Shown here: piece by piece, positions 2,851-63,709 of the stretch
Position numbering within the stretch: position 1 is the stretch's first letter
Layout: every line of letters begins with the position of its first letter
NCBI GenBank assembly: GCA_024679065.1
Contig: JAGIQG010000015.1
Location: 61,814,001 to 61,878,000, forward strand
Length of the DNA stretch: 64,000 nt
From: Sphyrna mokarran
Taxonomy: Eukaryota
Direction: 5' to 3'
Translations under genes and position numbers: made by a program
The notes under the pieces: model-generated
The model's database searches: none
Seen by the model: only the letters and a program-made list of their open reading frames with translations
Told to the model about the DNA's origin: nothing

Positions 2851-2859
2851 CAAGTCATA

Positions 2860-5089: not shown

Positions 5090-6210
5090 TTTCCTTGCAG
5101 TTCCAAAGGACATTATAAAACAAATTATGGAATGATGTCATGTAAGGAGATATGAGAGCGGATATTTAATACTTCACCAAGGAATTATGTTCTAAAGCAT
5201 GTCTTGAATGTTCTAAAGCATGTCTTGAACAGAAGCAAAATAAAAAGGCAAGAAGATTAGGTAGTTGAACACACAGTCACCAATGGTGGAGGGCTTAAAA
5301 TTGGAGATGCATAAGCAGACAGAATTCGAGGAATTTGGGTGTCTCAGCGTGTTGTGTTGTTGGAAGAGATTACAGAAACAGGGAGGGGTATTTCCATTGA
5401 GGCAGTTGAAAGCAAGAATGAGCAGTTAATTCACTTAACTGGGCATCACAAAGCGCAGTGAGAACAGGAGAGGTAGATCAAATGGATGTTATATTAAGTA
5501 AGGCATGGTCAGCAGAGTTTCAAATGATATCAAGTTTATGAAGCATTGAACTCAGGGGCTGGCAAGGTTTTGGAAAGTCAAGTTTGTGGCAAAAAAATAC
5601 ACGCATGAGGGATTCATATGTAGATGAAATGAGGCTGGGAGGCAATATTACAGAGATGGAAATAGACAGACTTAGTAATTGCGTTGATATGCGTTGCAAC
5701 TCATGTCGGTCAAAAGTGACACCAGGAGTGTGAATAATCAGGTTCAGCCTCAGACATTTGCCAGTGAGAGGGACGGAGTTGGTTACTAGGGATTGGAGGT
5801 GGTTGTGAGAGCAGAAGGCAATGTTTAGTTTATCTATTTTTTAGTGTCACAAGTAGGTTACATTGCAATGAAGTTAACGTGAAAATCCCCTTGTTGCCAC
5901 TTTCTGGTGCTTGAATTTAGCATGCCCCGATGCGTCTAACTAGCGTGTCTTTTGGACTGTGGGAGGAAATCAGAGCACCTAGAGGAAAGCCACACAGGCA
6001 CAGGGAGAATGTAGACTCTACACAGACAGTGACCCAAGCTGGGAATCAAACACCAGTCCCTGGCACTGTGGGACAGTAGTGCAAACCACTGTGCCACCGT
6101 ATCATTCGGTTTCACTGTTCCTAACATTAGTTTTAATAAATATCTGCGCATCATTTGTTGGAAGTCAGGCAAGTAGCCTAACTATTTCAAGACAAGAGAG
6201 AGTGGTTTCC
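5090..6210 (-). mobile_element. L2-like LINE remnant interrupted by a SINE
   Basis: agagattacagaaacaggga and aatatctgcgcatcatttg motifs; similar to 22030-22580. Confidence 0.55.
5826..6100 (-). mobile_element. HE1-like SINE with alternative tail
   Basis: Head accactgtgccaccgt and tail agtgtcacaagtagg...gaagtta..gtgaaaatcccc, as in 9805-10112. Confidence 0.8.
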
Positions 6211-9300: not shown

Positions 9301-9804
9301 TAAATTATGTTAAATTATGCACAATATGCATTCTGCCATGAGCCTTAACCGAGACAATATACTGTCTTAAAACAAAGTAAATTCGAAGCTGTTAAGATGC
9401 AAAGGAACAGAATCAAATGCAAAAAGATTTAGTTATTATTTGGGAGTGAGCCATACATTGGCAAGTGGCACATTCTTTCAATGAGCATATTGTTGGACAT
9501 GTTAATAGAAGACATGTTATTGTTTTTAGGGAATGTTACTGAAAGAGAGAAAAAAAGATCTTAACGTTATTGTACACAGAGCACTCATGATCAAAATAGG
9601 AAATGTATAAAAAAGTATTTGGTTATATCAATTGAACCTTGCAGTATAAATGAAATAACACATTTTTTCATTACTTTGATTACTCTTGGTGGGCATGATG
9701 GCCTTGACTTAGAAGAGAACTACAGGAATGATTCCCATCTTAAAATAAAACTTAGCCTATCAAATAGGTGCAATGATTTTGATCTATTTACTACAAGAGT
9801 GGAG

Positions 9805-10112
9805 AGGCATGGTGGCAAGTGGTTTGCACTGTTGCCTCACAGCACCACAGACCCAGATTTGATTCCTGGCTTGGGTCACTGTCTGTGCGGAATCTGAACA
9901 TTCTGTCTGTGTCTGCGTGGGTTTCCTCTGGGTGCTCCGGTTTCCTTCCACAGTCTGAATGAAATGCTGCTTAGGTGCATTGGCCATGCTAAATTCTCCC
10001 TCAGCGTATCTGAACAGGTGCCAGAACGTGACAACTAGGGGATTTTCACAGTAACTTCATTGCAGTGTTAACGTAAGCCTACTTGTGACATAATAAATAA
10101 ACTTTAAACTTT
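9805..10112 (+). mobile_element. HE1-like SINE with alternative tail
   Basis: ggcatggtggcaagtggtttgcactg head and gtaagcctacttgtgacataataaataaact tail. Confidence 0.8.
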
Positions 10113-10800
10113 AAAGGGAACTGCCTGTTCTGATAGAGGCCCATAAAACCATTAACAAACTTGATGTCATGTCTATTAATAGATTATTTCAGTTTAATAA
10201 ATAGGCAAGATCAGTTTAAGTTATATAAGAGTGGGAATACAGAACATTAGATGTTTGTCTTTTTTGCTGTTGAGACTAGTGTGGTGGGTATTGACTTATT
10301 TTGTGTCTTCAGGGGAAGATGGTTTTATTCTTAACTAGGGTAGGGATCTCTTCATAGTGAAGCTAAATTAAGTTATCTGTAGACAACACTTGCCCTAAGA
10401 AATCTTTTGAATTGATTTTCTTTATTGGGAAGGAGGGTGAGGAGTTGAGGAAGAGAAATTTTTCAGGATATTTATTTGTTATTTGATCTGATGATTTCTC
10501 TGATTCTTCTCCAAGCAGATACAAGCCACAAGTAGAAGGGGTTATGGTGGGCCTCTGTGGTAGGATGTGATTGTCCATGATATACTACACATCATCAATG
10601 GGGGGCAGGTTTGATGAACAAGGTGGTATTTTCCTGCCGACCAATCTTGTATGTAAACAGTTCATAATTTTTCATTCAGCCAAGCTTGTACAAGCGGAGC
10701 TCCAGCTGATCCAGAGCTGAATCAGGCAGCAGGCCAGGATCTCTCCACTGATCAAAAAAGAGCCAACAGCAATCAAAATCATTTCAGGAAGAAACTGGCC

Positions 10801-10974
10801 ATGATGGAGAGTTTCCAGCGCAAGGAGAATTCGGGTAACTCATCCACCACAATTGACTGGCTTGCTCCACATCCCCATATATGCGAAAAACAGTTCGAAT
10901 TCTGCGGATACCCTCTAAACATCGCTCGATATTTTGGTGGCAATTTGGGATACTCCGCTTCTATTTGGGAATCT
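10801..10974 (+). CDS. EEF1AKMT3: EEF1A lysine methyltransferase 3 (METTL21B)-like, coding exon 1
   Basis: MMESF...EKQFEFCGYPLNIARYFGGNLGYSASIWES matches the METTL21 N-terminal segment (F-CG--L-I...G-LG--A-VW). It is followed by a GTAAGT donor at 10975 (phase 0). Confidence 0.9.
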
Positions 10975-11469
10975 GTAAGTCATTGACTTCAATGCCAGTC
11001 CATCGATTGGGCAGGAAAATTATTCACATGTCAATAAGGATAGTTTCTTTTGGTGGATTATCTTTCTGTGTATTTCTATGTTCAACTATTGCAATAGATT
11101 TGTTATCTTGTGTGGTAAAGAGCTGGGGCCTGGAATTATTTACACAGCATACAGGGTACAAACAAGCTCTTGCTTAGAGATTGTGTTGTGTTCTTGATAT
11201 ATTTAAATGTGTGTTAGTGATTGCGCATGCACAAGAGCTGATTCACTCCTTTCCATGCCTGATTATGTTAAAGGAACATAGGAACACAAGTAGATGATTC
11301 AATCAGTCAAACATCTCTCTGTGTGCTATTAGATTGTAGCTGATCCAATACTTTAACTCCATTTACTCCACTTTTCTCTAAATCTCATGATATCCTCACT
11401 TCACAAAGAATTTCAAGTAACATTTCTAGGGGAACATTTACAGATATCCACTACATTTTATGCACATGA

Positions 11470-11778
11470 AACCATAGAATCCTTACAGTGCAGAAGGAGG
11501 CCATTTGACCCAATGAGTTAAAACTGATAGCAAACTCACCCAGGCCCTATTTTCTTAACTCCATGTATTTATCCTATTGTTCTTTCTGACACTAAGAGGC
11601 AATTTAGCATGGCCAATCAACCTAAATCATGCAGTATGGAAAGAAACTAGAGCACCCAGAGGAAACACATGCAGACATGTAGAGAATGTGCAAACTCCAC
11701 ACAGACAATCATCCACAGCTGGAAATGAACCCAGATCTCTGAGCTGTGAGGCTGCAGTACTACCCACTGTGCCATGCA
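11470..11778 (-). mobile_element. HE1-like SINE (intron 1)
   Basis: catagaatccttacagtgcagaaggaggccatt tail and ccactgtgccatgc head. Confidence 0.8.
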
Positions 11779-16360: not shown

Positions 16361-16730
16361 CTAAATATTATAGACTGGTTAACTTTTGCTACACTAACAT
16401 AGATTTTGTTTGGATAAATTATATTCCGCTTGGTTCCGTTGCAAAGCTGAGTTACCACCAATTTCTATGGCAAAAATATGATGGCTTGATTTCAGCACAT
16501 TTAAGTCATTCTGACAGATCAGTGTGCCAGCCTGGGACAGACTCTGTGCTTCAGAATCCTATGTATAATCGGCTTTGTGTGCCTGTCTGAGTGAAATCAA
16601 TGTAAAGTGCCACTCGTGCTATGCAGTATCTACATCCTTTTTACCTTTGCGACCATGATTGAGGATCATGTTAGTAATTGACTTGTAACCTAAATGAGGC
16701 TTGATAATACTTTTTCATTCTTTTTGTTAG

Positions 16731-17143
16731 GTGGTGATGTTACAATGACAGACAAAGAAAACGTGTTGAGTCAAATCAAACACAACGTCTCCACCAACAT
16801 CCCCACTACCTGTAGACATCGTTCAAAGGTCTGTGCCCTTTCCTGGGGTAAGGACCACACAAACTTTCCTACTGACTATGATTTCATCCTGGGTTCAGAT
16901 ATCGTCTATACTTCCCTCACTTACCCCTTGCTGCTAAAGACTTTGCTACATCTGGCCAAAGATCCAACCATCATTTATCTCTCTTCAAAATTACGTGCAG
17001 GGAACCAGTCGGCTACTTTTCACGAGGAGCTTTTACCTCAGCACTTCAATTGTCAGCTAGTTCACAGAGTCGAGGATAAAAATATTAACGTGTACAAGAT
17101 TAGCAAATTGAGTCCAAGGAGAAAAGATGACCTGCTGATGTAG
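16731..17143 (+). CDS. EEF1AKMT3: EEF1AKMT3-like, coding exon 3 (post-I, DxxY motif, stop)
   Basis: Acceptor tttttgttAG at 16729-16730. Translates GDVTMTD...ALSWG...YDFILGSDIVY...LLPQHF...NINVY, ending TAG. The three exons sum to 699 nt, in frame. LLPQHF is typical of METTL21B. Confidence 0.95.
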
Positions 17144-22619: not shown

Positions 22620-22942
22620 GGATAGCATGGTGGCATAGCAGTTAACACTGCTGCTTCACAGCGCCAGGAACCCATGTTCAGTTCCGGCCTGGGGTGACTG
22701 TATAGAGTTTGCACATTCTTCCATGTCTGCATGAGTTTCCTTTAGGTGCTCCAGTTCCCTTCCTCAGTCCAAAAATATATGGGTTAGGTTGATTGGCTAT
22801 GCTAAATTTCCCCTTATGTCACGGGGAATTAGTAGGGTAAATAGGTGGGGTTATGGGGATAGGACTGGGATGGGATTGCTGTTGGTGCAGTTTCAATGGT
22901 CAAAATGGCCTCCTTCTGCATTGTAGGAATTCTATGATTCTA
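22620..22942 (+). mobile_element. HE1-like SINE
   Basis: agcatggtggcatagcagttaacactgctgc head and ggcctccttctgcattgtaggaattctatgattcta tail. Confidence 0.85.
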
Positions 22943-26480: not shown

Positions 26481-28089
26481 ATATGAGTGGCCAAACATCA
26501 AAGTATATATTATTTTTGCCTACCTTGTGATGTTTTCTTGCTTTTGCTTTCAGTCAGAGCCAATCTTTATTCTGCCATTAATATTTACCGCAGATCAATG
26601 CTTTGCTTCTTTATTACAACTATCACCATTCCCTTCACCTTTTGTCCCATGATGTCTTTGGTATTTAATCTCCCCTGCACTTGAACCTATTCCCGCTTTC
26701 AACAGTACTGAATCTTATCACATTTCTACCTTCCTTCACTTACAATTATTTAATTTGAAATGTTAATGATATTTTTCACTGCACAATGCTAGTAAACCTA
26801 TTGCACACATTCTGTTCTTCTTTCATATTTCCAGCACCTAGAGCTTTTCTTCAGAAGTATTTTAATGAGTGGAAACTGTTTGATCATGTCCCAAGGTTAT
26901 TATAGTTGATACATAACTCCAAGACTTCCTGTCTTTCTGAAAATATCCCAAGGCAGTTTGTAGGTTCACTAATAAACAAAATTTGACACCAAGCATTGTA
27001 AAAAGATATAAAGACAGATGATGAAAAGCTTGGACAAAGAGATAGGTTTTTAAGGACTGACTTAAACAAGAAAAACACAATAGACCAAATTTTCCCAGCC
27101 CTATGAAAATGGCTTTGAGACAGGAAGCAGAGAACTTCTGAAAGGGAAACTTCATGCAGACTTCTCGATGGTATTCTCACTTACGTTCCTTTTTTACTGG
27201 AGGCAGTGGAAAGCCAATTGAGATAGTTAGCTGTGCAGTTAGCTCCCACTTCACCTTAGTGAACATTTCTGAATGGTACCCAGGTCCCACAAAATGTCAA
27301 GAGTTTGACAGCTCAGAGGAGATAAAATCACAGAAGGGAGTCATCATTGTCTGTAGCTGACAGGCATTCAGGTCAACAAAACAGAAAACTGACAAGGGCA
27401 GGCAAAATAAATTAATAAATCATAATTTTCTCTTGCGGGAGAATCTATAAGTGGGGGGCACAATTTAAAAATAAGAGAGGTTTCTCATTTAAGATTAATG
27501 AGGATAAATTTATTCTCTGAGAGGATCATTAATCTTTGGAATTCTCTTCCCTAGAAAGCAGTGGCGATTGGATCACTGAATGTATTCAAGGCTAAGTTAG
27601 ATAGACTACAAGGGAGTCAAGGGTTATGAGAATGCAGACAAGAAAGTGGAATTAAGGCTGCTATCAGATCAATCACTTACTTCTGCTCCTATTTCTGAGG
27701 GTGGGAATCCTGCAGTGAGTAACTTGAATTCCTAAATTGATAAGACACAAGTCAGGATTGTAATAGAATACTCTCCATTTGCCTGGGTGAGAGCAGTTCC
27801 AACAACATTCTAGAAGATCAGCCCACTGCTTCGAGTCTGCAGACTGATCAATATTTAAGAACTCAGCGACCAGTAGGCCACTGCAGTAACTGACTTCATT
27901 TATAAGTGTGTAGAAGACAGTGTGTCAAAGAGACAAATCCATGTTTCCAATCAGAGGCGTTCAGGTCAGGCAACCCTGGCCTACACAAGAAATGATGTAA
28001 AGATGCCGGCGTTGGATTGGAGTGGTAAGAACTCAGTAAGAATTTAGCAACACCAATTATTAATCCAACCGATTTATTTGATAGTAAAA

Positions 28090-28127
28090 TAGCGAGCTTT
28101 CAACACTCCCGTGTCTTCATCAGGCAA
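28090..28127 (-). ncRNA. Minimal type I hammerhead ribozyme motif (sense pLTR)
   Basis: Minus strand reads ttgc CTGATGA a GACAC ggga GTGTT GAAA gc TC gcta. CTGATGA is at 28123-28117. Confidence 0.75.
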
Positions 28128-28340
28128 GTGCAGTGTTCTGGTCTGCAATAGCACACATCAGCACAGACAGTCAGAGATTGCTGATTAGAATGCGAATCCT
28201 TACATCTAACCTGCTATTCAAGTGTTAAAGTGGCTAACAATGTGTGTGAAGGGAATCCTGAGCATTGTTAGAGAATTGTGTATTTTCTCCAGACAGCACA
28301 GTAAGTGAGGTTTTTTGCTAACCCAGGCAAGTTACGGGGG

Positions 28341-29453
28341 TTACAGATAGTGTGTCATGAAGCCAAGATCCCTGTTAAGACCGTCCTCATGTGTGCGGAA
28401 CTTGGCTATCAGTCTCTGTTCAGCAACTCTGCGCTGTCGTGTATCACGAAAGCCCCCTTGAAGAACATTTACCCGCAGGTCAGAGGCCGAATGCCCATGA
28501 CTGCTGAAGTGTTCACCCACAGGAAGGGAACTGTTTTGCCTGGTGATTGTTGAGCGATGCTCATTCATCCGCTGTCGTAGTGTTTGCATGGTCTCCCCAA
28601 TATACCATGCTTCGGGACATCCTTTCTTGCAACGTATTAGGTAGACAACGTTGGCCGAGTTGCAAGAGTATGTACCGTGCATCTGGTGAATGGTATCCTC
28701 ACGTTTGATGATGTCGTCCATGTCTATGATCCGGCATGTCTTGCAGAGGTTGCTGTGGCAGGGTTGTGTGGTATTGTGGTCACTGTTCTCCTGAAGGTTG
28801 GGTAGTTTGCTGCGAACAATGATCTGTTTGAGGTTGTGCGGTTGTCTGAAAGCAAGAAGTGGGGGGGTGGGGATGGCCCTAGCGAGATGTTCATCGTCAT
28901 CAATGATATGTTGAAGACTCCGGAGAAGATGTCGTAGCTTCTCCGCTCCGGGGAAGTACTGGACAACAAAGGGTACTCTGTCCACCGTGTCCCGTGTTCG
29001 TCTTCTGAGGAGATCAGTGCGGTTTATCGTTGTGGCACGTTGGAACTGTCGATCGATGAGTCGAGCGCCATATCCTGTTCTCACGAGTGCATCCTTCAGT
29101 GTCTGGAGGTGTCTGTCACGATCCTCCTCATCTGAGCAAATTCTGTGTATACGGAGGGCTTGTCCATAGGGAATGGCTTCTTTAACGTGTCTAGGGTGGA
29201 AGCTGGAGAAGTGGAGCATTGTGAGGTTGTCTGTCGGTTTGCGGTACAGTGAGGTGCTGAGGTGACCGTCCTTGATGGAGATGCGTGTGTCCAAGAATGC
29301 AACTGATTCTGGAGAATAGTCCATGGTGAGTCTGATGGTGGGATGGAACTTGTTGATATCATCATACAGTTGTTTCAATGATTGTTCACCATGAGTCCAA
29401 AGGAAAAAGATGTCATCAATGTATCTAGTATATAACCTTGGTTGGAGATCTTG
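28341..29453 (-). CDS. Penelope ORF fragment: RT C-terminus, Cys linker and GIY-YIG endonuclease (5'-truncated)
   Basis: RYIDD, FLD, LYRKPT, CHSNLCKTC and VVYLIRC...WYIGET...R.NEH...EHF...H motifs in one uninterrupted frame. The ORF-track start lies in the inverted arm and is not a true start. Confidence 0.92.
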   Translation of the reverse strand, partial: QDLQPRLYTRYIDDIFFLWTHGEQSLKQLYDDINKFHPTIRLTMDYSPESVAFLDTRISIKDGHLSTSLYRKPTDNLTMLHFSSFHPRHVKEAIPYGQALRIHRICSDEEDRDRHLQTLKDALVRTGYGARLIDRQFQRATTINRTDLLRRRTRDTVDRVPFVVQYFPGAEKLRHLLRSLQHIIDDDEHLARAIPTPPLLAFRQPHNLKQIIVRSKLPNLQENSDHNTTQPCHSNLCKTCRIIDMDDIIKREDTIHQMHGTYSCNSANVVYLIRCKKGCPEAWYIGETMQTLRQRMNEHRSTITRQNSSLPVGEHFSSHGHSASDLRVNVLQGGFRDTRQRRVAEQRLIAKFRTHEDGLNRDLGFMTHYL

Positions 29454-29737
29454 TGATAGCCAAGTTCCGCACACATGAGGACGGTCTTAACAGGGATCTT
29501 GGCTTCATGACACACTATCTGTAACCCCCGTAACTTGCCTGGGTTAGCAAAAAACCTCACTTACTGTGCTGTCTGGAGAAAATACACAACTCTCTAACAA
29601 TGCTCAGGATCCCCTTCACACACATTGTTAGCCACTTTAACACTTGAATAGCAGGTTGGATGTAAGGATTCGCATTCTAATCAGCAATCTCTGACTGTCT
29701 GTGCTGATGTGTGCTATTGCAGACCAGAACACTGCAC

Positions 29738-29775
29738 TTGCCTGATGAAGACACGGGAGTGTTGAAAGCTCGCTA
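29738..29775 (+). ncRNA. Minimal type I hammerhead ribozyme motif (inverted pLTR)
   Basis: CTGATGA 29742-29748, stem II GACAC/GTGTT, GAAA 29764-29767, palindromic AGCT, and UH site TC at 29770-29771. Confidence 0.75.
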
Positions 29776-31147
29776 TTTTACTATCAAATAAATCGGTTGG
29801 ATTAATAATTGGTGTTGCTAAATTCTTACTGAGTTCCTACACAAGAAATCCAGACATGATCTATAGAAACGCATCAAAGATACCAAAAGACAGTATCAGA
29901 CCAAGCTGGAGTCCCAGGCTAGCCCAATGGACTCCCATCAACTATGGTAAGGTGTGCAAGACATAACAGGCTACAAGATAAAGGAATGTATAATTTTTTG
30001 CTCCAATGCGTCCTTCCCCAACAAGTTCAATGCATTCTATGCCAGTTTTAAGCAAGAGGTCAGTGATAGCACCCCTTCCACCCTGAAAACCTCAGCTGAA
30101 CCCATATGCAAGGCCACCATCATGAAAGTCTTCTTGAAAGACAGCCTTCTTGAAAGTCAATCCATGGAAAGCTACTGGTCCGGATGGAATACCCGGACTG
30201 GCACTCAGATCCTCTGTGCACCAGCTGGCTTGGGTATTCATAGACATCTTCAACCTCTCTTTACACCAATCTGACGTCCCTATCTGCTTCAAAAATACAA
30301 CCATCATCCCTGTATGAAAGAAAATCCAGACAGCGTGTCTTAATTATTATTGTCCGATGGCTCTGACATCCATCATTTTGAAGTGCTTAATGGCACAAAT
30401 CAATTCTGTCCTTCCAGATTGCCTGGGTCAACCGCAATTTGCCTATTGCCACAACAGGTCCACAGCAGACACCATCTCCTTGGATCTACACTCAACACTG
30501 GGATACCTGGCTAACAAAAACACCTCTGTCAGACTCCTATTTATTGACTACAGCTCAGCCTTCAACACCACTATCCCCACAAAACGCATCTCCAAACTCC
30601 ATGTCTTGGGACTCAGCTCCTCCCTCTGCAACTGGATCCTCAACTTCCTAATCCACAGACTGCAATCAGCAAGAATATACAACAACACTTCCTCCACAAT
30701 CATCCTTAATATTAGTACCCAGCTTTATCCTCAGTCCCTTACTATATACATTTATGATTGTGTGGTCAAATTCTCCTTCAACTCGATTTTTAAGTGCTGA
30801 TGATACCACTGTAGTGGGTCAGATCTCAAACAATGATAAGATGGAGTACAGGAAAGAGATAGAGAATCTGGTGAACTGGTGCAATTACAATAATCTCTCT
30901 CTTAATGTCAACAAAACAAAGAAGATAGCCATTGACTTCAGAAAGCATGGTGGAAGACTTGCTGTCTACATCAATGGGGATGAAATGGAAATGGTTGAGA
31001 GCTTCATGTTTCTAGGTGTCTGGATCACCAAAAATCTGTCCTGGTCCCTCCATGCTAACGTTATACATAAGAAAGCCCACAATGTCTCTACTTTCTCAGG
31101 AGGCTAAGGAAATTTGGCATGTCCCCTACGATTCTCACCAACATATA

Positions 31148-31688
31148 TAGATAGAACATAGAACATAGAACACTACAGCACAAACAGGCCCTTCGGCCCA
31201 TGAGTTGCGCCGATCACATCTATATCTACTAATCCACAGACCTATCTATAACCCCCTATCCCATTAGTTCCCATATACTCATCCAGAAGTCTTTTAAAAG
31301 ACCCCAGCGAGTTCGCCTCTACCACCACCGACGGCAGCCGATTCCATTCACTCACCACCCTCTGAGTGAAAAACTTACCCCTAACATCCCCTCTGTATTT
31401 GCTTCCCTGCACCCTGAATCTGTGTCCTCTCATAGCGACCATTTCAGCCTGGGGAAATAGCCTCTGAGAATCCACCCTATCCATTCTTCTCAACATTTTA
31501 TAAACCTCTATCAGGTCGCCTCTCAACCTATGGCTCTGCAGGGAGAAGAGTCCCAGCTCCCTCAACCTATCTTCATAAGGCATGCCTCCCAATCCAGGCA
31601 ACATCCTTGTAAATCTCCTCTGCACTCTTTCAATAGCTTCCACATCCTTCCTATAGTGAGGTGACCAGAACTGCGCACAATACTCCAA
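31148..31688 (-). mobile_element. Young CR1 LINE 3' end inserted in Rex1
   Basis: LEYCAQFWSPHYRKDVEAIERVQRRFTRM...FFTQRVVSEWNRLP, with a (catagaa)n tail. Confidence 0.93.
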
Positions 31689-32144
31689 GATGCACCATAG
31701 AAAACATTCTTTCTGGTTGCATAGCTCCTGCTCTGTCCAAGACTGAAAGAAACTGCAAAGAGTCAGGAATGAAGCCCAGTCCATCACGCAAACCAGCCAC
31801 CCATCCATTCACTCTGTCTACATTTTCTCCTGCTTTGGAAAAGCAACCAGCATAATTAAGGACCCCACATATCCCAATCATATTCTCTTCCACCTTCTTC
31901 CATCAGGAAAAAGATACAAAAGTCTGAGGTCATGTATCAACCGACTCAAGAACAGCTTTTTCCTTGCTGCCATTAGACTTTTTGAATGGACCTACCTCAT
32001 GTTACGTTGATTTTTCTCTACAGCTTGAGCATTGTCTCCTTTTTTCTCTATGAACAGTATGCTTTGTCTGTATAGCGCACAAGAAACAATACTTATCACT
32101 CTATACAAATGCATGTGACAATAATAAATCAAATCAAATCAAAC

Positions 32145-32719: not shown

Positions 32720-33345
32720 CAGTCAGAAGTGTCACAACACCAGGTTAAAATCCAGCAGGTTTAATTGGTTTCAGGAGATTTTGGAGCACTGCCCCTTCAT
32801 CAGGTGAGTGAAGAATTGAGTTCACAAACAGGGCATGTATAGACACAAACTCAATTGGAAGATAATGGTTGGAATGTGAATCTTAACAGGTAATCAAGTA
32901 TTTACTGGTACAGACAATGTGAGTGAAGAGAGGGATAAGCACAGGTTAAAGACATATGAATTGCCTCAAACCAGGACAGTTAGTGAGATTTTGCAAGGCT
33001 AGGCCAAATGGCGGGGCTCGCACATTGTGTGACATGAACCCAAGATCCTGGTTGAAGCAGTGCTCATGTGTGCAGAACTTGGCTATCAGCTTCTGCTCGG
33101 TGATTCTGCATTGTTGTGTCTTGAAGGCCACCTTGGAGGACTTATCTGAAGATCGGCGGCTAAATGCCCTTGTCTGCTGAAGTGTTCTCCAGCAGGAAGG
33201 GAACAGCCCTGCCTGGTGATTATTGAGCAGTGTCCATTCATCCATTGTCGTAGCATCTGCATGGTCTTGCCGAAGTACCATGCCTCGGGACATCCTTTCC
33301 TGCAGCGTATCAGGTAGACAATGTTGGCCGAGTGGCATGTGTATG
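32720..33345 (-). mobile_element. Decayed Penelope-like 3' fragment
   Basis: EQKLIAKFCTHEHCFNQDLGFM is homologous to the 28341 ORF end. pLTR carries ccttcatcaggtg (hammerhead CTGATGA on the minus strand; GAAA decayed). Confidence 0.85.
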
Positions 33346-33349
33346 TACC

Positions 33350-34030
33350 ATGTCAGTCAGTCAGACGACTCCCTCTCGGGACTTGTTGCTAGCCAACAGA
33401 TTTATGGGAAAGTCTGCTTCTATCCGTGTCACCTCTGCACCAGGTCAGGATCATGGGGCTGAAGTACATTCAAATATTGAGGAGAAGACCCTTCAAATAA
33501 CTACAAAGAGGCTGCAACTTTGAACAATCTAAATACAAATGGAATATGGATTCCCCTTGATTGCAGAAAAAACATATGAGCCACCTTAGTCTATAGTTGC
33601 ATGGACTGCTGCATTCCTTACCCTCCCAGCTAGATCTCTGGTGGAAAAATGAGGGATTGCCACTGGGGACTTTCCTGAGACAGATAGTAGAACAGAATGG
33701 CACAGTATGGCCTGACGGTGGAAGAAGGTAGGGAAATGGAGGGTGTACAGCAGCAGGCCATACAGGAAAACCCTCCGTGCTGCATGGAAAGGCATGAAGG
33801 AAATTTCCCCAAGATGCCTGAGAGGTTGAGGCTCCTGGGGGAGGTTCTTGCAACATCATCCATCCCATTTCTGTGCACTCCAGTATATCCCCAACTCTGG
33901 TCAGCTCATAGCCCAAGCACTCTTTTCCGTCAGCCCTCGGAATCGATTTTGATAGAGATGTGGATTCCTGTGCAACGGCTGTCTGTTGACAGCTTCTATT
34001 TAATGAGAGAGAACTCCAGCATGAGACAAC
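33350..34030 (-). mobile_element. Tx1/L1-clade LINE C-terminal remnant
   Basis: CFFCNQGESIFHLYLDCSKLQPL is a zf-RVT CCHC-type motif; FLYGLLLYTLHF lies upstream. Confidence 0.75.
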
Positions 34031-34049
34031 CATGTTCTAGACATTAATT

Positions 34050-34213
34050 GTCTTTTTTTGCAATGTAGGGCTTCTTCTATGATGCAAACTAACTGGTAAC
34101 TTAGAGGCCACTGCACTGTGCCTCTTTGGAATTCTTAAGAGCTACAATGCAGTGGCCTCCAAGTTACCAGTTAGTTTGCATCATAGAAGAAGCCCTACAG
34201 TGCAGAAAAAGAC
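34050..34213. repeat. Fold-back inverted repeat with ~70-bp arms
   Basis: tgtagggcttcttctatgatgcaaactaactggtaactt-gaggccactgca is mirrored by tgcagtggcctc-aagttaccagttagtttgcatcatagaagaagccctaca. Confidence 0.93.
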
Positions 34214-34522
34214 CATTTGGCCCATCGATTCTGCATCGACCATAATCCCACCCAGGCCCTACTCTCATATCCCTACACATTTACCAGTTAATCTCTCTAA
34301 TTTACACATCTCAGGTCACTAAGGGGCAATTTTATCATGGCCAATTAACCTAACCCACACATCTTTGGGCTGTGGGAGGAAACTGGAGCACCTGGAGGAA
34401 ATCCACACAGGCATGGGGAGAATGTGCAAACTTGATACAAACAGTGACCTAAGCCAGGAATCGAACGCAGGTGCCTGGAGCTGTAAAGCCACAGTTCTAA
34501 CCACTGTGCTACCGTGTCACCC
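34180..34522 (-). mobile_element. HE1-like SINE
   Basis: ccctacagtgcagaa tail and ctaaccactgtgctaccgtg head. Confidence 0.85.
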
Positions 34523-37929: not shown

Positions 37930-38262
37930 TGAGCAGCACAGTGGCACTGTGGTTAGCACTGCAGCAACACAGCGCTTGGGACTTGCATTCAATTCCGGCC
38001 TCGGATCACTGTCTGTGTGGAATTTACAATTCTCCCCGCGTCTGCATGAGTTTCTCCCAGGTGCTCTGCTTTCTTGTCATACTCCAAAGATGTGCAGGTT
38101 AGGTGGATTGGCCATGTTAACTTGACCTTTAGTGTCAGGAGGACCAGCGTACTAAATAATTATGGGATTATGGAGATAGGGCCTGGGTGGGATTATTGTC
38201 AATGTAGGCTTGATAGGCCAAATGGCTGTCTTCTGTAGTGTAGCAATTCTATGATTTCTATG
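37930..38262 (+). mobile_element. HE1-like SINE
   Basis: gcagcacagtggcactgtggttagcactgc head and ttctatgatttctatg tail. Confidence 0.85.
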
Positions 38263-42759: not shown

Positions 42760-43072
42760 GTCATAGAATCTCCAGTGCAGAAAGAGGCCATTTGGCCCAT
42801 CAAGCCTGCATCGACAACAGTCCCACCTACATCCTAGCCCCGTAACCCCACATATATTTATCCTCCTAACTCCCCTGATACCAACAGACAGTTTAACATG
42901 GCCAGTCAGCCTATCTTTGGATTGTGGAAGGAAACCGGGACACGTGGAGGAAACCCACACAGACACGGGGACAATGTGCAAACTCTGCACAGATAGTAAC
43001 CCAAGGCCGAATTGAGCTTGCGTCCCTGGCACTATGAGCAGCAGTACGAACCACAGTGCCACAGTACCGCCC
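42760..43072 (-). mobile_element. HE1-like SINE
   Basis: tcatagaatctccagtgcagaaagaggccatt tail and gaaccacagtgccac head. Confidence 0.85.
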
Positions 43073-44559: not shown

Positions 44560-44860
44560 TGGCGCAGGGCACAGTGGCTAGCCCTTCTGCCTCACAACGC
44601 CAGGGTCCCAGGTTCAATTTTGGCATCGGGTGACTGTGTGGAGTTTTCACCTTCTTATCATGTCTGCAAGAGTTTCCTTTGGTGTTCCAGTTTCCTCACA
44701 CACTTCAAAGATGTGCAGGCTATGTTGATTGGCCATGATAAATTGCCCCTTGGTGTCAGGGAGATTAGCAGGTTAAATATATGGGTTTATGGGAATAGGG
44801 TTTGGATGAGATTATTGTTGGTACAGACCAAATGGCCTCCTTCTTATTGTAGGGATTCAA
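44560..44860 (+). mobile_element. HE1-like SINE
   Basis: ggcacagtggctagccc-tctgcctcacaacgccagggtcccagg head. Confidence 0.85.
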
Positions 44861-45944
44861 ATGTGTTAGATTTTGTCTTCTTATCTCTAAGAACAAAATT
44901 CTACCAGTTCAGACCAGGGCAACTACAACACTCTTCTTCTTAGTCTTTTCACTCCTTGATGGAGCATAGGCCTTGGAGAAATTATTTCCATCTAATCCTA
45001 TTTTGGGCCAAGCTCTGCGGTTATATCCTCCTGCTCCCAACTCTTTTTCCGTACATATAGTAACAGTGCATATTATAACAATTCTATCAAGATGCTGTCC
45101 ATTCACCAATAAAACTTGGCCAAAACTGTGCAGGAAGACTGAGTATGACAGTGAATTACACACTGTTCTTTCACATCTGGCAGACAGGTTCAAAATTCAT
45201 CCCCGAGGGTTCTATTGTCACAATGGTTCGGATGCTGTCTTTTCATGAATGGGGCCTGGTTTCCAAATTGGCATGGGCAAAGTAGGCAGCACTGTAAATT
45301 AAACCAAGTTACTGTCAATGAGAAACTGGTGCACCAGATGTACGGATAATCTGGGACATTCAAACTCACTTCCGCCTGCTCAAATATCTTTCAGATCACC
45401 AGCACTAATGGGTTAGGTTTTAGCTTTCAGAAGGCTGACTGGCAGAATGTGGCGACTGGCTGGCGGCACCTGTCAATTGCTTACCCCGCTACCAGGAAGC
45501 TCGCTTCAATCTGTATGATCACTATCCATTGAAATCTCACCAGCCAGATATATGCCCCAGTAGCTATTCCTGCTGCAGCTTACCAGAGTCAGGTCCAGTG
45601 AATGTAGTCAGACCAAAGTGGGGAGGAATAGGGATGAAGAGTCCAACTGCAGAGGAGCAGGGAGGGGTATCAGGGAAAGCAGCAACCTATGGTCATTTTT
45701 CTGGATCTAAAGTGAAAATCCTTTCCTCCTATGCCCCACAATAATAATACCGTTTTGGGACCTTCTCTGCCAAGTGTAACCAGACAGAGCAAGCACAGCA
45801 CACAGTCTATATTGAAATTGGGGTCCTATGTGTGATTTGTGCCTGTGGGTGAGCTGCAAGATCACCCATTCTCATCACCATAACTGAGCTTCCAAAAACA
45901 ACGGCACCAAATCAGTATTTACGGACTCCTAGACACTTAGAACA

Positions 45945-46241
45945 TAGATCATAGAACATAGAACACTACAGCACAAACAGGCCCTTCAGCCCACAAGTTG
46001 TGCCGAACACATCAAAACCTACCCAGCCATAGACCTATCTATAACCCCCAATCCCATTGGATCCCATATACTCATCCAGAAGTCTTTTAAAAGACCCCAG
46101 CGAGTTCGCCTCGACCACCACCGACGGCAGCCGATTCCATTCACTCACCACCCTCTGAGTGAAAAACTTTCCCCTAGCATCCCCTCTGTACTTGCTTCCC
46201 TGCACCTTAAATCTGTGCCCTCTCATCGCGACCATTTCAGC
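45945..46241 (-). mobile_element. Young CR1 LINE 3' end
   Basis: Nearly identical in reverse to 51200-51497. Confidence 0.92.
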
Positions 46242-47490: not shown

Positions 47491-47594
47491 TTTGCTCTAT
47501 GACACTTCAAGATCTGTGTATTCCAATTTTCTGACTTGGAGACTGATGATGCAATCAGTTAACCACCTGAGTGGTGGGAACAACAGTGAGACAA

Positions 47595-47930
47595 TCATAA
47601 AACACTGCAGGGCAGAAAGAGGCCCTTCAGTCCATCAAGTCTGTACCAAACACAATCCCACCCTGGCCCCACTCCACATCCCTACACATTATACCCACTA
47701 ATCCCTCTAATCAATGCATTTTTAGCATGGCCAATCAACCTAACCCACACGTCTTTGGACTGTGGGAAGAAACCAGAGTATCCAGAGGAAACCCATGCAG
47801 ACACGAGGAGAATGTGCAAACTCCACACAGACAGTGAACTGAACCGGGAATCGAACCCACGACCCTGGAGCTGTGAATCAGCTGTGCTAACCACTGTGTT
47901 ACCGTGCAACTCAACCACTGTGCTACCAGG
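47595..47930 (-). mobile_element. HE1-like SINE
   Basis: ggccaatcaacctaacc...gagaatgtgcaaactccacacagacag...gctaaccactgtg. Confidence 0.85.
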
Positions 47931-49460
47931 TGGTAGCAACAAGGGTGTGGATCCTATTTAAACAAACCCTCAGTGCCATTAATTGCTTTATTACATTAAT
48001 TACTTTATTGCATTACCTGATGCTGAACAAGTATCTTAAGAGATACAAGGACCTGGAACATAGGGCAGGGCAATCCCTCAATACAGGATGTGGACATAGT
48101 GGCCCCTTTTTGAAGTCACAAAAGAGGAGCAAGGTATACTTTTTCAGGAATGTGACAGATGGAGCTCTCCTCCCAGCCTAAGGAGATTTAAGATTGAGGC
48201 AATTGAAACAGTGAGCAGAAATGAGGCCTACAGAACAGGCTCCATTACAGAAACAGATTCACTGACTTTATTTCCCATGGCAAGGTAGGCACAAAATTCA
48301 CTCCTCAGGATAGGTGCCCCTCTAGCAGACACAGCAACTGAGGAGCCTCAGGGCCCTCCCGAATCTGTGAGGAGTGTGTGCCTAGATCACTTACTGAACC
48401 CTCAAAAGGGGTCAAAGCCACTTTGCTACTGAGGACCTGCCATCAGCAGAACATGCAGATTCTCACCAACAGGATCAGCTGACATTGGTCATTGAGGTAA
48501 CAGGGCCTGTTCTCGCTCTATTGTATCCTTGAAGGAAAATTGCAGTCATAACACATAGGAGGGTGTCCAGAAGGAAGGAGGGGCTATATACCATGGAGTG
48601 GGAAACTATAGATGTTTTCAGGGTCATCTTCATGAGGAAGTTGAGGAAAACCAGATGGGCAAAGTCTGTAATACATTCATTATGACAGTGTAATGCACTC
48701 CAGCCCTTATAGCATACCCAAAAACACTACACTGGAAAACCTCAGCATTGCAGAGACCTGTGCTCCACAAAGCTAGTTTCCCTAATCTCTTCTCACCATT
48801 TCCAACACTAAGGCAATTGAAATAACTCCTTCACCATCACCATGCCAAATACACCCACAGCAGAGCTCCAACCAAACACTGTCAAACCTTACGCACGAAC
48901 TTTCCAGCAGCACAGATAAAGTCACCTTGATAGTTCTACAGAGTGGCACCAAGTAATGATTATGTCACTAGTTTGCCAGAGGCAGTGCCCGAGGCCGAGG
49001 AAACTCTGGGCATTCCCTCCCCAAAAGCAGAGAACAGACACAACCTTGCTCAGCTGCGCACAGAAACAAGGAGTCAAGAGTCACAAGAAATGCCATAAGT
49101 AACATCCATGATCACACACATCAGTCTCCTCTGAAGTAATGCGCAGTCATGGACTAAGAATAGAAAAGTCCTTCTGGATCATGTGTACTACCGGAGCTCA
49201 CAACTTTGCATGTCTGGGTTCCCCCATTGAGAAAGTGATTAATCTCAAGGAGAGCCAAATGTAGCTGCAAATCGAGTGCTTGCAGGATCCGCACACTGAC
49301 TTTCACAGAAGGCATCTGGCACTATGTAACCTTCATCAGTCAATGGTGCTGATGGCACACAAATGTCTCGAAGGAATGCAGTTACACATCAGCTGATCTG
49401 AATCTTTCTCTGGAATCTAGATTGCAAAGGAAATAGGGAATGAGAATGAAGGGAAATTAC

Positions 49461-49767
49461 TTTTTTTTAATCCAGTTCAATCAAATCAAGTCCAATTCAG
49501 AATCTCAACAAATTGAGACATTTCCGATCCAAGCTGACAAGACAGGGCTCTCACTTCCTGTCTTGGGCTTGATCAACATGATCCACATTGATTGGAGTAG
49601 GCACAGCTCCTCTTCCAAGGCTTGACCTCATTTGCATCTTAGCCAAAAGGCCAAGATGTCACTTCTAAAAATTGCTTCAAATGAAGCTAAAATGTAATCT
49701 AATGACTTCAACAAAGTACAGCATGTCGATACTACACTTGATGTTAGACAAAAGGCTGAGAAGCGAT
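49461..49767 (-). mobile_element. U2 snRNA-headed, poly(A)-tailed retroposed element
   Basis: U2 nt 1-40 at 49767-49728, a second U2 nt 7-27 copy at 49656-49636, and an A8 tail at 49468-49461. Confidence 0.65.
49728..49767 (-). pseudogene. RNU2: U2 snRNA 5' fragment (nt 1-40)
   Basis: ATCGCTTCTCAGCCTTTTGTCTAACATCAAGTGTAGTATC versus vertebrate U2 ATCGCTTCTCGGCCTTTTGGCTAAGATCAAGTGTAGTATC (37/40). Confidence 0.9.
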
Positions 49768-50209
49768 TATAAATTAAATTAAGGTTCTTTCAATTAATAC
49801 TAGTACACCTGCCACTGATCTGAGGGTATTCAAATGTACATCCTCCTTCTCATGTAGCTTGGCAATCAACTCTGCTTGTGTCTCTGATAAAACCAACGAA
49901 TTAGTCATCAAGTTATTGCTCATTGAATGCTGAAATCTGATATATCCTTCCTCTTATCCTCATGTGTCTCAATTTCGTCTCCTCTCCTGACTTATGTAGA
50001 ACATGTTTTTTTTTAACCACCCACTTCCCATATCTACATCCAAGTATCCGTTAATCAGGTATGAGACTACTCTTCAGTGTGATTGCTGCTAATCTATCAT
50101 TCTCAAACTTCTATGTTATTAGATATCTCAAAACACATAATTGAGTATGTGGTTATTTAAAGCTAAAGTTATCTAAAAGTCTCCCATAGCCTGTCCATCC
50201 ACAATTCAT

Positions 50210-52070
50210 TAGTCAGGGGCATGGTGCAATACATTTGCTTGTACGTGTACAGTTCTAACAATATTCAAGAAGTTTGAAACCATGCAGAACAAAGCAACCT
50301 GCCTGATGACTGCCCTTTCCACCATGTTCAGATACTGAAGCAGTCCATGTTCATATACAAGATTTGGACAATATCCAGTCTCGGGCTGACAAGTGGTAAG
50401 TAACATTCACACAGGTGCCAGGCAATGACCATCACTAATAAGACACATTCTAACCACTGCCTCTTGACATTCAATGGTGTTACCATCACTGAATCCTTCA
50501 CTGACAACATCCTTGTCGTTACCATTGACAAGAAACTCAACTGGATTCATCACATAAACACAGTGGCTATATGAGCAGGTTAGAGGCTAGGAATACTCAG
50601 CGAGTAACTTATTTCCTGACTCCCCAAAGCCCGTCCATAATGTACAAGGCACAAGTCAGCAGTATAATGGAATACTCTCCACTTTCCTAGCTGGGTGTAA
50701 CTTCAACAACACTGAAGAAGCTTGACATTATCCAGGACAGAAAAGCTCACTTGATTGGCAACACATTCACAAACATCACTCCCTGCTCCACTGACACTCA
50801 GTAAGGGCAGTGTGTACAATCTATAGGTGCATTGCAGCAATTCACCAAAGGATGTGGTTAAGAAAGCTTATGGTGTACTGGCCTTCATTCATCGAGGGAT
50901 TGAGTTCAGGAGTCAGGAGGTAATGCTGCAGCTTTATAGGACCCTTGTCAGACCACACTTGGAGTACTGTGCGCAGTTCTGGTCGCCTCCCTATAGGAAG
51001 GACGTGGAAGCTATTGAAAGGGTGCAGAGGAGATTTACAAGGATGTTGCCTTGATTGGGAGGCATGCCTTATGAAGACAGGTTGAGGGAGCTGGGACTGT
51101 TCTCCCTGGAGAGATGAAGGTTGAGAGGCGACCTGATAGAGGTTTACCAGATGTTGAGAGGATTACATAGGGTGGACTCTCAGAGATTATTTCCCAGGGC
51201 TGAAATGGTCGCGACGAGAGGGCACAGATTTAAGGTGCAGGGAAGCAAGTACAGAGGGGATACTAGGGGAAAGTTTTTCACTCAGAGGGTGGTAAGTGAA
51301 TGGAATCGGCTGCCGTCGGTGGTGGTCGAGGCGAACTCACTGGGGTCTTTTAAAAGACTTCTGGATGAGTATATGGGATCCAATGGGATTGGGGGTTATA
51401 GATAGATCTATGGCTGGGTAGGTTTTGATGTGTTCGGCACAACTTGTGGGCCGGAGGGCCTGTTTGTGCTGTAGTGTTCTATGTTCTGTGTTCTATCCCT
51501 AGACAGCATATTCCAAATCCATGGCCGCTTCCATCTAGAAGGACAAGTGTAGCAGATGTTTGGGAATACCACCACCAGCAAGTTCCCCTCTAAGTCATTC
51601 ACAATTCTTACTTGGAAATATATCGCCATTCCTTTGCAGTCGCTGGTCAAAATCCTGGAATTTCCTCCCCAGCTGCATTGTGGATCAACCCACAACATGT
51701 CAACGGCAGTGATTCAAGAAGACAGTTTTCCAACAACTTCTCAATAGCAACTAGGGATGCACAATAAATGCTGGCCAGCCAGCAATGTCCATGTTGCAGG
51801 AATGAATTAAATAAAGGTCCTTCACTGCCACTGGCTGAGAAACCTGAAACTCCCTCCTTAACAGCACTCTACGTGTACCTACACCATATCAATTACAATA
51901 GTAAAGTAAAAGTAAAGTTTGTTTATTAGTCACAGTAAAGCTTACATTGACATTGCAAAGAAGTTACTGTGAAATTAGTTCAAGAAAGCTACAACCTTTG
52001 TTAGGGCAATTAAGATCAGGCAATGAATGCTGGCTTTCCCACTGTTGTACACATTCCATGAATTAATTAA
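50210..52070 (+). mobile_element. Non-LTR retrotransposon 3' part split by a young CR1
   Basis: gttaccattgacaagaaactcaactgg, tacaaggcacaagtcag, and tgcagcaattcaccaaag|...|ccctagacagca continuity across the CR1. Confidence 0.7.
50850..51497 (+). mobile_element. Young CR1 LINE 3' end
   Basis: VVKKAYGVLAFI...LYRTLVRPHLEYCAQFWSP...LRGDLIEVY, with a ttctatgttct tail. Confidence 0.93.
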
Positions 52071-56689: not shown

Positions 56690-57460
56690 CTAGTTATTCG
56701 GACAGGCTGGGATGGTCCTCAAAGAGCTTGGAGATACCCAAACGCTGCAGGATGTAGCTCTCATGCACCATCCCAGGTGACATGCATATACTTGCATGAT
56801 GTTCAATGGATGGTCACACACCATTTGAATATTCAGGGAGTGGAAACCTTCGCGATGAATTAAAGTTACTCCCAGATTCCACAGAGCCCACAGGTCAACG
56901 TGTGTGCCGTTGATAGCTCCTTGCAAATGGAGTGCCCTGCTAATGGTAGAGAAACCTGCAGCCCAGGCTTCCTATTGGGCCTGGCCCACATTAAAGTGAA
57001 TGTAATGGTCTGCCCAGGTATATAGGGCACTGGTCATCTTGCGGATGCTCTGTGTGGTAATGATTGGGAAATGTTGCAGAAGTCACCACTCGAGCTCTAG
57101 CAACAGATGGCAGCATAAAAGCTGAGGCTGGCATGACCCTCATGACCACCAAGGGTGGATGTCCTCCTGTGCCACGAAGTGCCAGCTCCATGACGACATG
57201 ACACAGGTGCTGGACTGTCTTCCTACTGAGACACAGTCTGCAGTGACACACAGTATTTGGCAGCCTGTCGAAGAACACTATTGAACTTGAGTCTCTGTCT
57301 CCACTAACCTCTAACTGCTGCGCACTCCCCTCCTCATGCTGATGGGTGGCTGTATGCTGCTCCTTACCAGTGGCTCCCTGACCTCCTGCTATGGCCTCAA
57401 GCCAGGGTTAACCTTGTCCATCAGCCACCACAGCTGCAATGAGAATGGCTGTCAGATCTA
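56690..57460 (-). pseudogene. Harbinger transposase N-terminal half (HARBI1-like), frameshifted
   Basis: GAI(D>N)GTHV and FHSLNIQMVCD DDE_Tnp_4 motifs; the C-terminal half is missing. Confidence 0.85.
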
Positions 57461-60039: not shown

Positions 60040-61316
60040 GTGATGAGATGGTTTTTGCGATGCAAGCGATCAATCTTCCTGTTCTTTTGGCTGCTGCTGA
60101 AGACGGAAGAGCTAGACAAAGAATTGTGAACACAGGAGGCCCAGACCTGACCACTTGCACAAATAAAGGGAGATGATTACCAGAGGCAGGAGGTGGCTGC
60201 CATTCACTCTGAGAGGGGGCGCAGTAGAAGGCGGGAGCAGAGACCCCAACAATTCCATGTACGAGTTTCATTTGAACAGATGTCAAATACTGCGTGCCAC
60301 CGACGTCTCTGTCTCCAAAAGGAGACAGTGGAACACCTGTACAAACTATTGCAAGACCAGGCGCCTAGGGAGTGGGGGGAGGCACCCACTCTCAGTGGCT
60401 GTCAAATTAACAGTCGCTCTGAACTTTTATGTGACTTGGCTCCTTCCAGATCCTCAGCTGAGATGTATGTGGCATTTCCCAGTCAGCTATGCACACACAT
60501 GTCAAGCAGATCACAGAAGCCCTGTACGCCCAGACTGGGCAGTACATCAAATTTAACCTAGACCAGGTCCATTAGGAAGTCAGGACTGCTGGGTTCGCGG
60601 CTATTGTGGCGATGCATAAAGGACAGGAGCCATCAATTTAATCTATGTCACCCTCAGGGCCCCCCTACAGACTCCATGAAGATTCATGAACAAAAAGGGG
60701 TTTCACTCCCTGAATGTTCAACTAGTGTGTGACCATAATACGACCATCATGCACATCTGCACAAGATGCGCAGGATGTACGCCAGCTTCATTGTCAGGAG
60801 TGCTGATATTTGAGGAATTTGAGGAAGAGCCCAGGCTGCAGGGCTGTCTTGTGCATGATATGGGTTACCCTCTTCAGACATCGCTGAAGGAGCCTGTGAG
60901 GAAGGCTGTGACTCAGGTGGAGACCCATATAATGAGGCCCACGTAGCCACCCACACAATAGTGGAGTGGTGCATTGGACTCCTCAAAGTGCGATTCCTGT
61001 GCCTAGACTGCTCTGGCGGGGCCCTCCAATACAGCCCAGTGATCTCTTTCTGCGTTGTGATTGTGTGCTGCGCTTTGCGCAATCTGACTCTGCAGAGAGG
61101 TGACCTGTTGGAGGAAGAGGAGGAAGATGTGGAGGCTGACCAGCTGGGCGCCACTGGGTAAGATGACCAGCAGGATGAGAAAGAAAAGGAGGAGAGGAGG
61201 AGGAAGAGAAAGAACATGCCCTGGAACTCCAATCAAACCCTGGAGGGCTGATAACTCGAATGAGGCACACGAGGGCAGCTAGGGAGGCCTTGATCACCAG
61301 GTGGTTCAGTCGCTAA
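60040..61316 (+). pseudogene. Harbinger transposase (HARBI1-like), frameshifted
   Basis: LSVAVKLTVALNFY, NKKGFHSLNVQLVCDH, DMGYPL, VEWCIGLLKVRFLCLD and CCALRN motifs. Confidence 0.9.
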
Positions 61317-62583: not shown

Positions 62584-62824
62584 ACTGTAGAGATACCGGC
62601 GTTGGACTGGGGTAAACACAGTAAGAAGTCTGACAGCACCAGGTTTAAGTCCAACCGATTTATTTGATAGTAAACTCACACAGGCTTTCGAGATTCTCCT
62701 CTTCGTCAGGTGAATGAGGTGTTCTGGTCTCAGACCTGATGGAGAGGAGAACCTCGAAAGCTTGTGAGTTTATTATCAAATAATTCGGTTGGTTTTAAAC
62801 CTGATGTTGTCAGACTTCTTACTG
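62584..62824. mobile_element. Fold-back Penelope-derived mini-element with hammerhead cores on both strands
   Basis: Arms 62619-62711 and 62734-62824. Flanking actgggtctcctgcag at 62568-62583 and 62821-62836. Confidence 0.85.
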
Positions 62825-63202
62825 GGTCTCCTGCAGGCTCTCAAGCCTCTCAGCCATCAGCTGCAGAATAGCTCAGCGGTAGCCCAATGTGACTTGGCCG
62901 TGGCCCTCTGGGACTCAGCCTGTGGTCTGCGGTGACTCAGTCATCGCTTGGAGCCTGCCACACAGGGTGAGGATCCCCGGCCCTACCCTTGCAGTGTTGG
63001 CCCAGGAACCATACGACACAGGCAACAGGTGGCCCACTTGGGACTCCCTCCAGAAACCTCAGAGTTGACCCAATGTGGCTGTCAGTTCCTCCAGCAATCC
63101 CAGGTTCTGCTGCTGCAACTCCAGCAGCTGAGAGAGAAGTGATCTCAAAAGCCCAGCATGTAGCCTGGGCCAGCTGAGTCCTCACCTCTGGCAGGTCCCA
63201 TG

Positions 63203-63338
63203 TAAGAAGTCTGACAACACCAAATTTAAATCCAACCGATTTATTTGATAGTAAATTTTGGATTTAAATTGGATTTAAACCTGGTGTTGTCAGACTTCTT
63301 ACTGTGTTTACCCCAGTCCAACGCCGGCATCTCCACAT
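63203..63338. mobile_element. Fold-back Penelope-derived mini-element without a hammerhead
   Basis: taagaagtctgacaacacca...tggtgttgtcagacttcttac plus tail ccagtccaacgccggcatctccacat, flanked by caggtccc(c)atg. Confidence 0.8.
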
Positions 63339-63709
63339 CAGGTCCCCATGTGCCAGAGGCCTTGGACATTCCTTCCTCCACCAAATGTACATTATCAGAT
63401 GTGTCGTGCTCACCAGTGAGTGACCCAGTAGCCTCACCACTAACTGGACCCACCAACATCTCAGTATCTGGTGGAAGCTGATGCCGAAATGGTTCCCCTC
63501 AGAAGCCCTTTCACCCATATCCTCCGAGGATTTGTCCGAGCTGTTCTGAACAGGTTTGGCAGGAGCTGCATCAGAGGCCTGTAGTGTGAGCCACGATGCC
63601 AGAAGATCCTGGGGCTTCCAGTTCTGTCCCTGCAACACAGGACACAAGGTTAAATGCAAGAGAGAGAGAAGAATCAGGATACAAAACACCTGATTTACTT
63701 TTCTCTATT

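Follow-up and report, generated by a model that had tools for sequence, protein, structure and literature searches.

SINEU elements are short snRNA-headed retroposons that, in the account that named them, were found in crocodilians alone and in no host outside this group (Kojima 2015, PMC4494074). As described there, SINEU-1 consists of a short U2 piece, a shared body and a poly(A) tail, with extra U2 pieces on the 5' side, and the heads of SINEU-1 recur on some of the Tx1-Mar LINEs, which are classed together with Keno. Template switching onto snRNA is the model favoured for SINEU in that account, which leaves the transcription of these elements as an open question. What makes snRNA-headed SINEs peculiar is that neither U1 nor U2 contains an internal promoter. 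At the insertion sites of Keno and Utopia, U2 from nt 39 onwards follows the inserted element, according to the description in PMC4640811, and triple snRNA chimeras are among the products described in PMC4476161. No report of an snRNA-headed SINE in cartilaginous fish was found in the literature searched by title and start of abstract, and the words snRNA, SINEU and Tx1 are all absent from the text of PMC5499810 that was available for a word search.

The 64-kb window, i.e. the whole stretch of shark DNA analysed here, contains a 307-nt element on the minus strand (49767-49461). It opens with U2 nt 1-40; after 71 nt of spacer come a second U2 piece (nt 7-27), the body and, at the 3' end, an A8 tail. 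Our preferred reading (probability roughly 0.6) is that the element belongs to a SINEU-like family of non-autonomous shark retroposons, of which it would be a single old copy, mobilised in trans by a LINE of the Tx1/Keno type. It most likely represents a U2-headed, SINE-like layout in a new vertebrate lineage, and may already be catalogued in Repbase or Dfam. The initial annotation of this locus had left the choice between a U2-headed SINE and a retroposed U2/Keno-like chimera; this proposal fits the anatomy and the SINEU-1-like layout of the element, whereas an open reading frame (ORF) and a downstream U2 half are both absent.

The outer head (49728-49767, minus strand) aligns with nt 1-40 of U2 snRNA (Rfam RF00004) and is decayed. 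It is the single Rfam U2 match across the entire window (40.8 bits, E 9.3e-5, under the gathering score of 46), and its base-for-base alignment to Rfam U2 is restricted to positions 1-40. The 5' end of the head coincides exactly with U2 +1, while its 3' end lies 2 nt beyond the Keno/Utopia insertion point (38/39) and 2 nt after the branch-site hexamer (U2 33-38), in agreement with the annotated end just past the branch-site recognition sequence. The head is identical to the Rfam consensus letters at 36/40 positions, and the 37/40 originally reported for nt 1-40 is recovered against what we take to be the vertebrate U2 sequence. Stem-loop I, which is otherwise invariant in U2, carries changes in the head according to the Rfam alignment. 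Furthermore, CpG dinucleotides in the element have decayed to the background level (3 observed vs 11.7 expected; ratio in the window 0.25). Taken together, the altered stem-loop and the depleted CpG mark the copy as old.

The head is followed by an AT-rich spacer (49657-49727, minus strand), estimated before at about 70 nt and measured at 71 nt (49727-49657), which is unaligned to U2, contains one T4 and one T5 run and shows no significant fold (z -0.37 for 49662-49727). It also holds two U runs that we presume to resemble Sm sites. The possibility that the spacer represents a decayed middle portion of U2 including its Sm site was rejected, as Rfam aligned just U2 7-26 in that stretch. This alignment belongs to the inner U2 piece (49629-49656, minus strand), in which Rfam matches 49656-49637 to U2 7-26 at 19/20 positions; with the adjoining base, which matches too, the ungapped homology to nt 7-27 amounts to 20/21, exactly as first annotated. 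When the head is aligned with the remainder of the element and gaps are allowed, the inner homology reaches approximately U2 nt 33 at the cost of a single extra base (49635). Both U2 matches are far above chance expectation, while a third U2-like piece at 49592-49579 was rejected, since an equal score was reached in 62/1000 shuffles. In the predicted fold, the inner piece forms a 10-bp hairpin (49635-49658, minus strand) corresponding to U2 stem-loop I lengthened at its base, with a mean pair probability of 1.0 and a T4 run in the loop (49648-49645). At its 3' end the element terminates in A8 (49461-49468, minus strand), read directly from the sequence and matching the tail noted before at 49468-49461; as this run is preceded by ATT, the tail starts with ATTAAA, a poly(A)-signal variant with a putative signal role. 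Unrelated AT-rich sequence follows the tail, and Rfam detects no 3' half of U2 anywhere in the 64-kb window, so that the downstream half is missing, as had been stated.

Between the inner U2 piece and the tail, the body (49479-49632, minus strand) is predicted from fold z-scores to constitute a multi-branched RNA domain, in which a long stem closes four hairpins. The 193 nt of 49661-49469, comprising the inner U2 hairpin and the body, fold with -72.8 kcal/mol (z -5.24), which none of 200 shuffles equalled, whereas the opposite strand of 49469-49661 folds less well (z -3.16). Without the U2 hairpin the body reaches z -3.13 (1/200 shuffles as good), and the fold of head plus spacer is no better than chance. 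Only four of 262 GC-matched windows had a better fold, all of them in long inverted repeats. The mean pair probability is at least 0.88 in 11 of the 12 predicted helices, in a prediction that draws on one sequence without covariation. The two hairpins previously noticed 3' of the inner U2 piece are both present in the predicted fold, one with nine pairs (49565-49557/49546-49538, mean probability 1.0) and one with seven (49519-49513/49508-49502, mean probability 0.89). Besides U2, Rfam has no match better than E 4.9, and thus no credible family for the body at E<10; together with the lack of an ARAGORN gene, this led us to reject a ribozyme, a tRNA or a snoRNA as the source of the body. The longest stop-to-stop frame overlapping the element encodes 62 aa, no ORF remnant is attached to it, and conceptual translations of the body have no credible protein relatives, the one match in a representative search being an unrelated repeat protein.

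With its U2-derived 5' head, 307 nt of non-coding sequence and a 3' A8, the element closely resembles SINEU-1, notably SINEU-1E, 1F and 1J, which are likewise described as non-coding elements of less than 500 bp with a poly(A) tail, a short U2 piece before the body, extra U2 on the 5' side and internal oligo-T (PMC4494074). It differs from SINEU-1 in its host, which is a shark and not a crocodilian, and in its exact Pol III A box/B box pair (see below), of which that account reports none in SINEU; moreover, the Mariner target given for SINEU-1 is not evident in the flanks of the shark element. The likeness to SINEU-1 concerns the layout, and the shark element is not assigned to this family, as its host differs. 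With Keno and the U2-headed Tx1-Mar LINEs (such as Tx1-11_Crp), as far as they are described in PMC4494074, PMC4640811 and PMC6136364, it has in common an A-tail and a piece from the 5' part of U2 that stops at the Keno site (nt 38-40). In contrast to these, the element lacks an APE/RT ORF, is not followed by U2 39+ and resides outside a U2 gene. A Keno insertion was rejected on the missing ORF and U2 half, and from the comparison with Keno drawn in the initial annotation only the head end at nt 40, which adjoins the 38/39 site, still stands. Utopia, an RLE-type LINE, targets the same U2 site and has reptile copies outside U2 genes (Kojima and Jurka 2015, PMC4640811), but the shark element has neither an RT/RLE ORF nor the 20-bp U2 duplication, and cartilaginous fish do not appear in the Utopia host table of that paper. 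A Utopia tail was also rejected, as four short tail motifs of the element are missing from the 10 supplement files of PMC4640811. As in the shark element, a retroposed sequence with an A-tail has a 3'-truncated snRNA piece on its 5' side in snRNA/LINE template-switch chimeras; those described in PMC4476161 are single events that mostly involve U6, whereas the shark element has two U2 pieces, of which the inner one is built into the predicted fold.

If the element belongs to a shark retroposon family, the core unit of inner U2 piece, structured body and A-tail would have come first, and U2 nt 1-40 together with the spacer would have been joined to its 5' end later. The simplest route for this joining would be a master copy that occupied the Keno site within a genuine U2 gene, where Pol II would have read it from the promoter of that gene; the extent of the head, from U2 +1 to 2 nt past the Keno site, is as would be expected of RNA from such a copy. 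Template switching onto U2 RNA would alternatively have yielded the same product. Reverse transcription from the A-tail would then have placed the unit in an AT-rich site unrelated to U2, where the present copy, having lost its promoter, would have decayed. Use of Pol III for the full 307-nt unit is unlikely because of the T4/T5 runs in head and spacer. Several points speak against a family: the body has one copy in the window, the target-site duplication is short and offset, a Tx1-like fragment in the window (33470-34036) has no match to the body, and successive template switches at one site can also produce two U2 pieces.

Of the alternatives, the one that survives best, although we consider it unlikely, is an internally deleted or 5'-truncated Keno/Tx1 LINE, in which head and spacer would represent the 5' end and the body the 3' UTR, so that the element would count among non-autonomous LINEs instead of SINEs. 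LINE tails typically comprise a structured 3' end and an A-tail, as seen here, and the head terminates at the Keno site. In addition, crocodilian Tx1-Mar LINEs bear U1 or U2 heads (PMC4494074). Such a derivation would leave the absence of any ORF remnant unexplained, and an inner U2 piece is not among the parts of the Keno 3' UTR described in the literature consulted; the four tail motifs were found in 0/10 of the PMC4640811 supplements that we searched for Utopia 3' ends. SINEU-1 itself, as presented in PMC4494074, is also without a known LINE sharing its 3' body.

Distinctly less probable is a one-off chimeric retrocopy, which would go back to a single reverse transcription of a structured, A-tailed RNA, with jumps of the template to U2 and no later amplification. 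The body is single-copy inside the 64-kb window, several LINE clades share the formation of snRNA chimeras by template switching (PMC4476161), and the sequence words shared with other organisms (see below) could derive from orthologs. On the other side, the mammalian chimeras in that paper mostly contain U6 and U6atac, not U2, and the inner U2 piece of the shark element appears to have been remodelled into a clean 10-bp hairpin of a coherent predicted fold, which would suggest selection in a replicating RNA.

Weaker again is the possibility of a self-promoting Pol III SINE, in which the core unit (from about 49658) would be read from an internal A and B box and the outer head would be a later passenger. 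Both Pol III consensus motifs have an exact match in the element, namely TRGYNNANNNG (A box; 49635-49645, minus strand), which is supplied by the inserted base and the 3' side of the U2 stem-loop, and GWTCRANNC (B box; 49566-49574, minus strand), 71 nt after the A-box start. Both consensus strings were used as printed in PMC4333407, which gives the Alu boxes at +13 and +77. A pair at such Alu-like spacing occurred in 12/5000 shuffles of the element, whereas a B box anywhere was present in 342/5000, and the other exact A/B pairs of the window (four pairs at two loci) are all confined to an abundant tRNA-like SINE. A transcript starting 12 nt ahead of the A box would begin at the base of the U2 hairpin and meet no T4 run between A box and tail. 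The search for the two boxes was, however, post hoc and followed trials of several other motif types; furthermore, 10 of the 11 A-box bases come with U2, leaving the B box and one base as independent elements, and seven B-box bases are themselves identical to U2 nt 25-31. The T4 at 49648-49645 overlaps the A-box start and would sit at about +10, and three further T4/T5 runs are located 5' of the boxes in the full unit. A terminator in this position makes use of the boxes less likely, although T4 ends just 75% of transcripts in the human U6 cassette reported in PMC5725217. For crocodilian SINEU, PMC4494074 reports that no Pol III promoter was detected. The related scenario that sharks evolved, separately from crocodilians, a U2-headed SINE family with a self-promoting core, its A box made by one inserted base from the 3' side of U2 stem-loop I and its B box 71 nt on, is considered improbable.

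Least probable is a structured non-coding RNA, or a variant snRNA, encoded at one locus and retained by the host, as the strong, strand-biased predicted fold, the Sm-site-like U runs of the spacer and the near-identical words in other organisms are opposed by the lack of a detectable upstream promoter, the altered stem-loop I of the head, CpG at background, a genomic A-tail and, at E<10, the absence of a credible Rfam family except for the U2 piece.

The hint in the initial annotation that an octamer in the element is the distal promoter element of an snRNA gene did not hold up. This octamer (49630-49637, minus strand) is located inside U2-derived sequence, within the element and not about 220 bp upstream of it, and occurs at chance frequency: the 64-kb window contains three octamers vs 3.2 expected, the other two being more than 13 kb distant, and 218/5000 shuffles of the element contain one. 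It had also been described as abutting the second U2 piece; an overlap exists at 49637-49630, but the U2 homology runs on through the octamer to about nt 33. The inserted base at 49635 not only completes the A box and lengthens the hairpin, but also creates the octamer. Being part of U2-derived sequence and dependent on one inserted base, the octamer is probably incidental. No octamer is present 5' of the element, and the best upstream match to what we take to be the PSE consensus (8/14 at -62) reaches the value that background stretches most often yield as their best (676/1598). A functional U2 snRNA gene was rejected, given a score below the Rfam gathering threshold, alignment of nt 1-40 alone, a PSE at background and the absence of an upstream octamer.

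The insertion site provides a weak indication compatible with retroposition, in the form of a possible 6-bp target-site duplication on the minus strand, with an upstream copy (49771-49776) 3 nt off the head and a downstream copy (49454-49459) 1 nt off the tail. Duplications of this offset kind were obtained at 154/20000 random sites and in 407/20000 composition-matched shuffles; as this is the sole match, the earlier statement that a convincing target-site duplication is absent remains valid. The immediate flanks of this one insertion are unique within the window and have no long terminal inverted repeat.

In an index of sequencing runs, 24 runs from 13 studies were listed as holding words of the element, none of them RNA runs. 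Seven runs from three studies, representing two organisms and one set without label, contained at least 0.22 of 32 sampled 31-mers (0.22-0.50), which corresponds to about 2-5% divergence; the remaining 17/24 listed runs had small word shares (0.06-0.16) and were excluded from the evidence. Because both U2 pieces are short and broken by differences, no 31-mer consists of unbroken U2, and the sampled words are not plain U2; near-identical element sequence therefore exists in at least two organisms. Judged from these words, orthologous loci of related sharks and sister copies would fit the seven runs equally well. No exact matches to body patterns were found in metagenome, viral and prokaryote contigs, which are collections with almost no shark DNA. 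A similar repeat is presumably common in shark sequences, which we take as a lead only.

If true, a shark family of the same layout as SINEU-1 would mean either that the same 5' piece of U2 was recruited convergently or that the lineage is very ancient. The element also allows a test of two routes, namely co-transcription with a U2 gene at the Keno site and an internal Pol III promoter derived from U2. A U2-derived A box, if real, would mean that a fragment of a Pol II snRNA was turned into an internal Pol III promoter and would answer the question of how snRNA-headed SINEs are transcribed. Should the element already be present in Repbase/Dfam, or be a single chimera, its description would amount to mere routine annotation.

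In addition to the U2-headed element, the window contains two probable exons of a gene resembling EEF1A lysine methyltransferase 3, at 10657-10986 (assigned by eye) and 16694-17143 (plus strand). The latter encodes a Pfam PF10294 domain; its identity is 88% with a protein of the basking shark, 82% with one of a sawshark and 74% with one of a sawfish. Cartilaginous fish account for all of the first 51 among 86 matches in the protein search, and a shark is the most likely host on this evidence. A Penelope-like element (28025-29840) includes an open frame of 381 aa (28341-29486, minus strand) with a GIY-YIG nuclease at its end and is flanked by 387-bp inverted repeats, whose 99% identity indicates a recent insertion. 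Nested inverted repeats clustered at 62586-63340 and 27993-28144 are related to the terminal repeat of this element. The Tx1-like fragment at 33470-34036 (minus strand) comprises a 188-aa frame without a Pfam match, the 3' UTR of which seems to have been replaced by a Penelope fragment (32914-33352); the frame includes a zinc-finger-like stretch, which we take to be of the kind found at ORF2 ends of Tx1-type LINEs. Adjoining this fragment, a near-perfect long palindrome at about 34000-34200, possibly a MITE, is the most stable window of the fold scan (z about -20). Decayed remnants of a Harbinger-like transposase were identified at 60151-61158 (DDE_Tnp_4 at 60859-61158) and, by tblastn, at 57024-57278.

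The tRNA-like SINE of about 320 bp is present in about a dozen copies with 67-80% mutual identity, two of which have kept exact A and B boxes; these copies include 2858-3170, 5835-6104, 9799-10099, 11468-11777, 22624-22942, 34188-34519, 37930-38258, 42761-43065, 44564-44858 and 47593-47915, among others. The tRNA-like SINE, the Penelope-like element and the CR1-like ends described below resemble what we presume to be typical shark repeats. Furthermore, a tandem array with an 83-bp period and 97-99% identity is located at 3983-4307. One CR1-like LINE is represented by three young 3' ends (31150-31689, 45944-46241 and 50958-51497) that are 90-97% identical, the last of which lies 1.2 kb from the U2-headed element.
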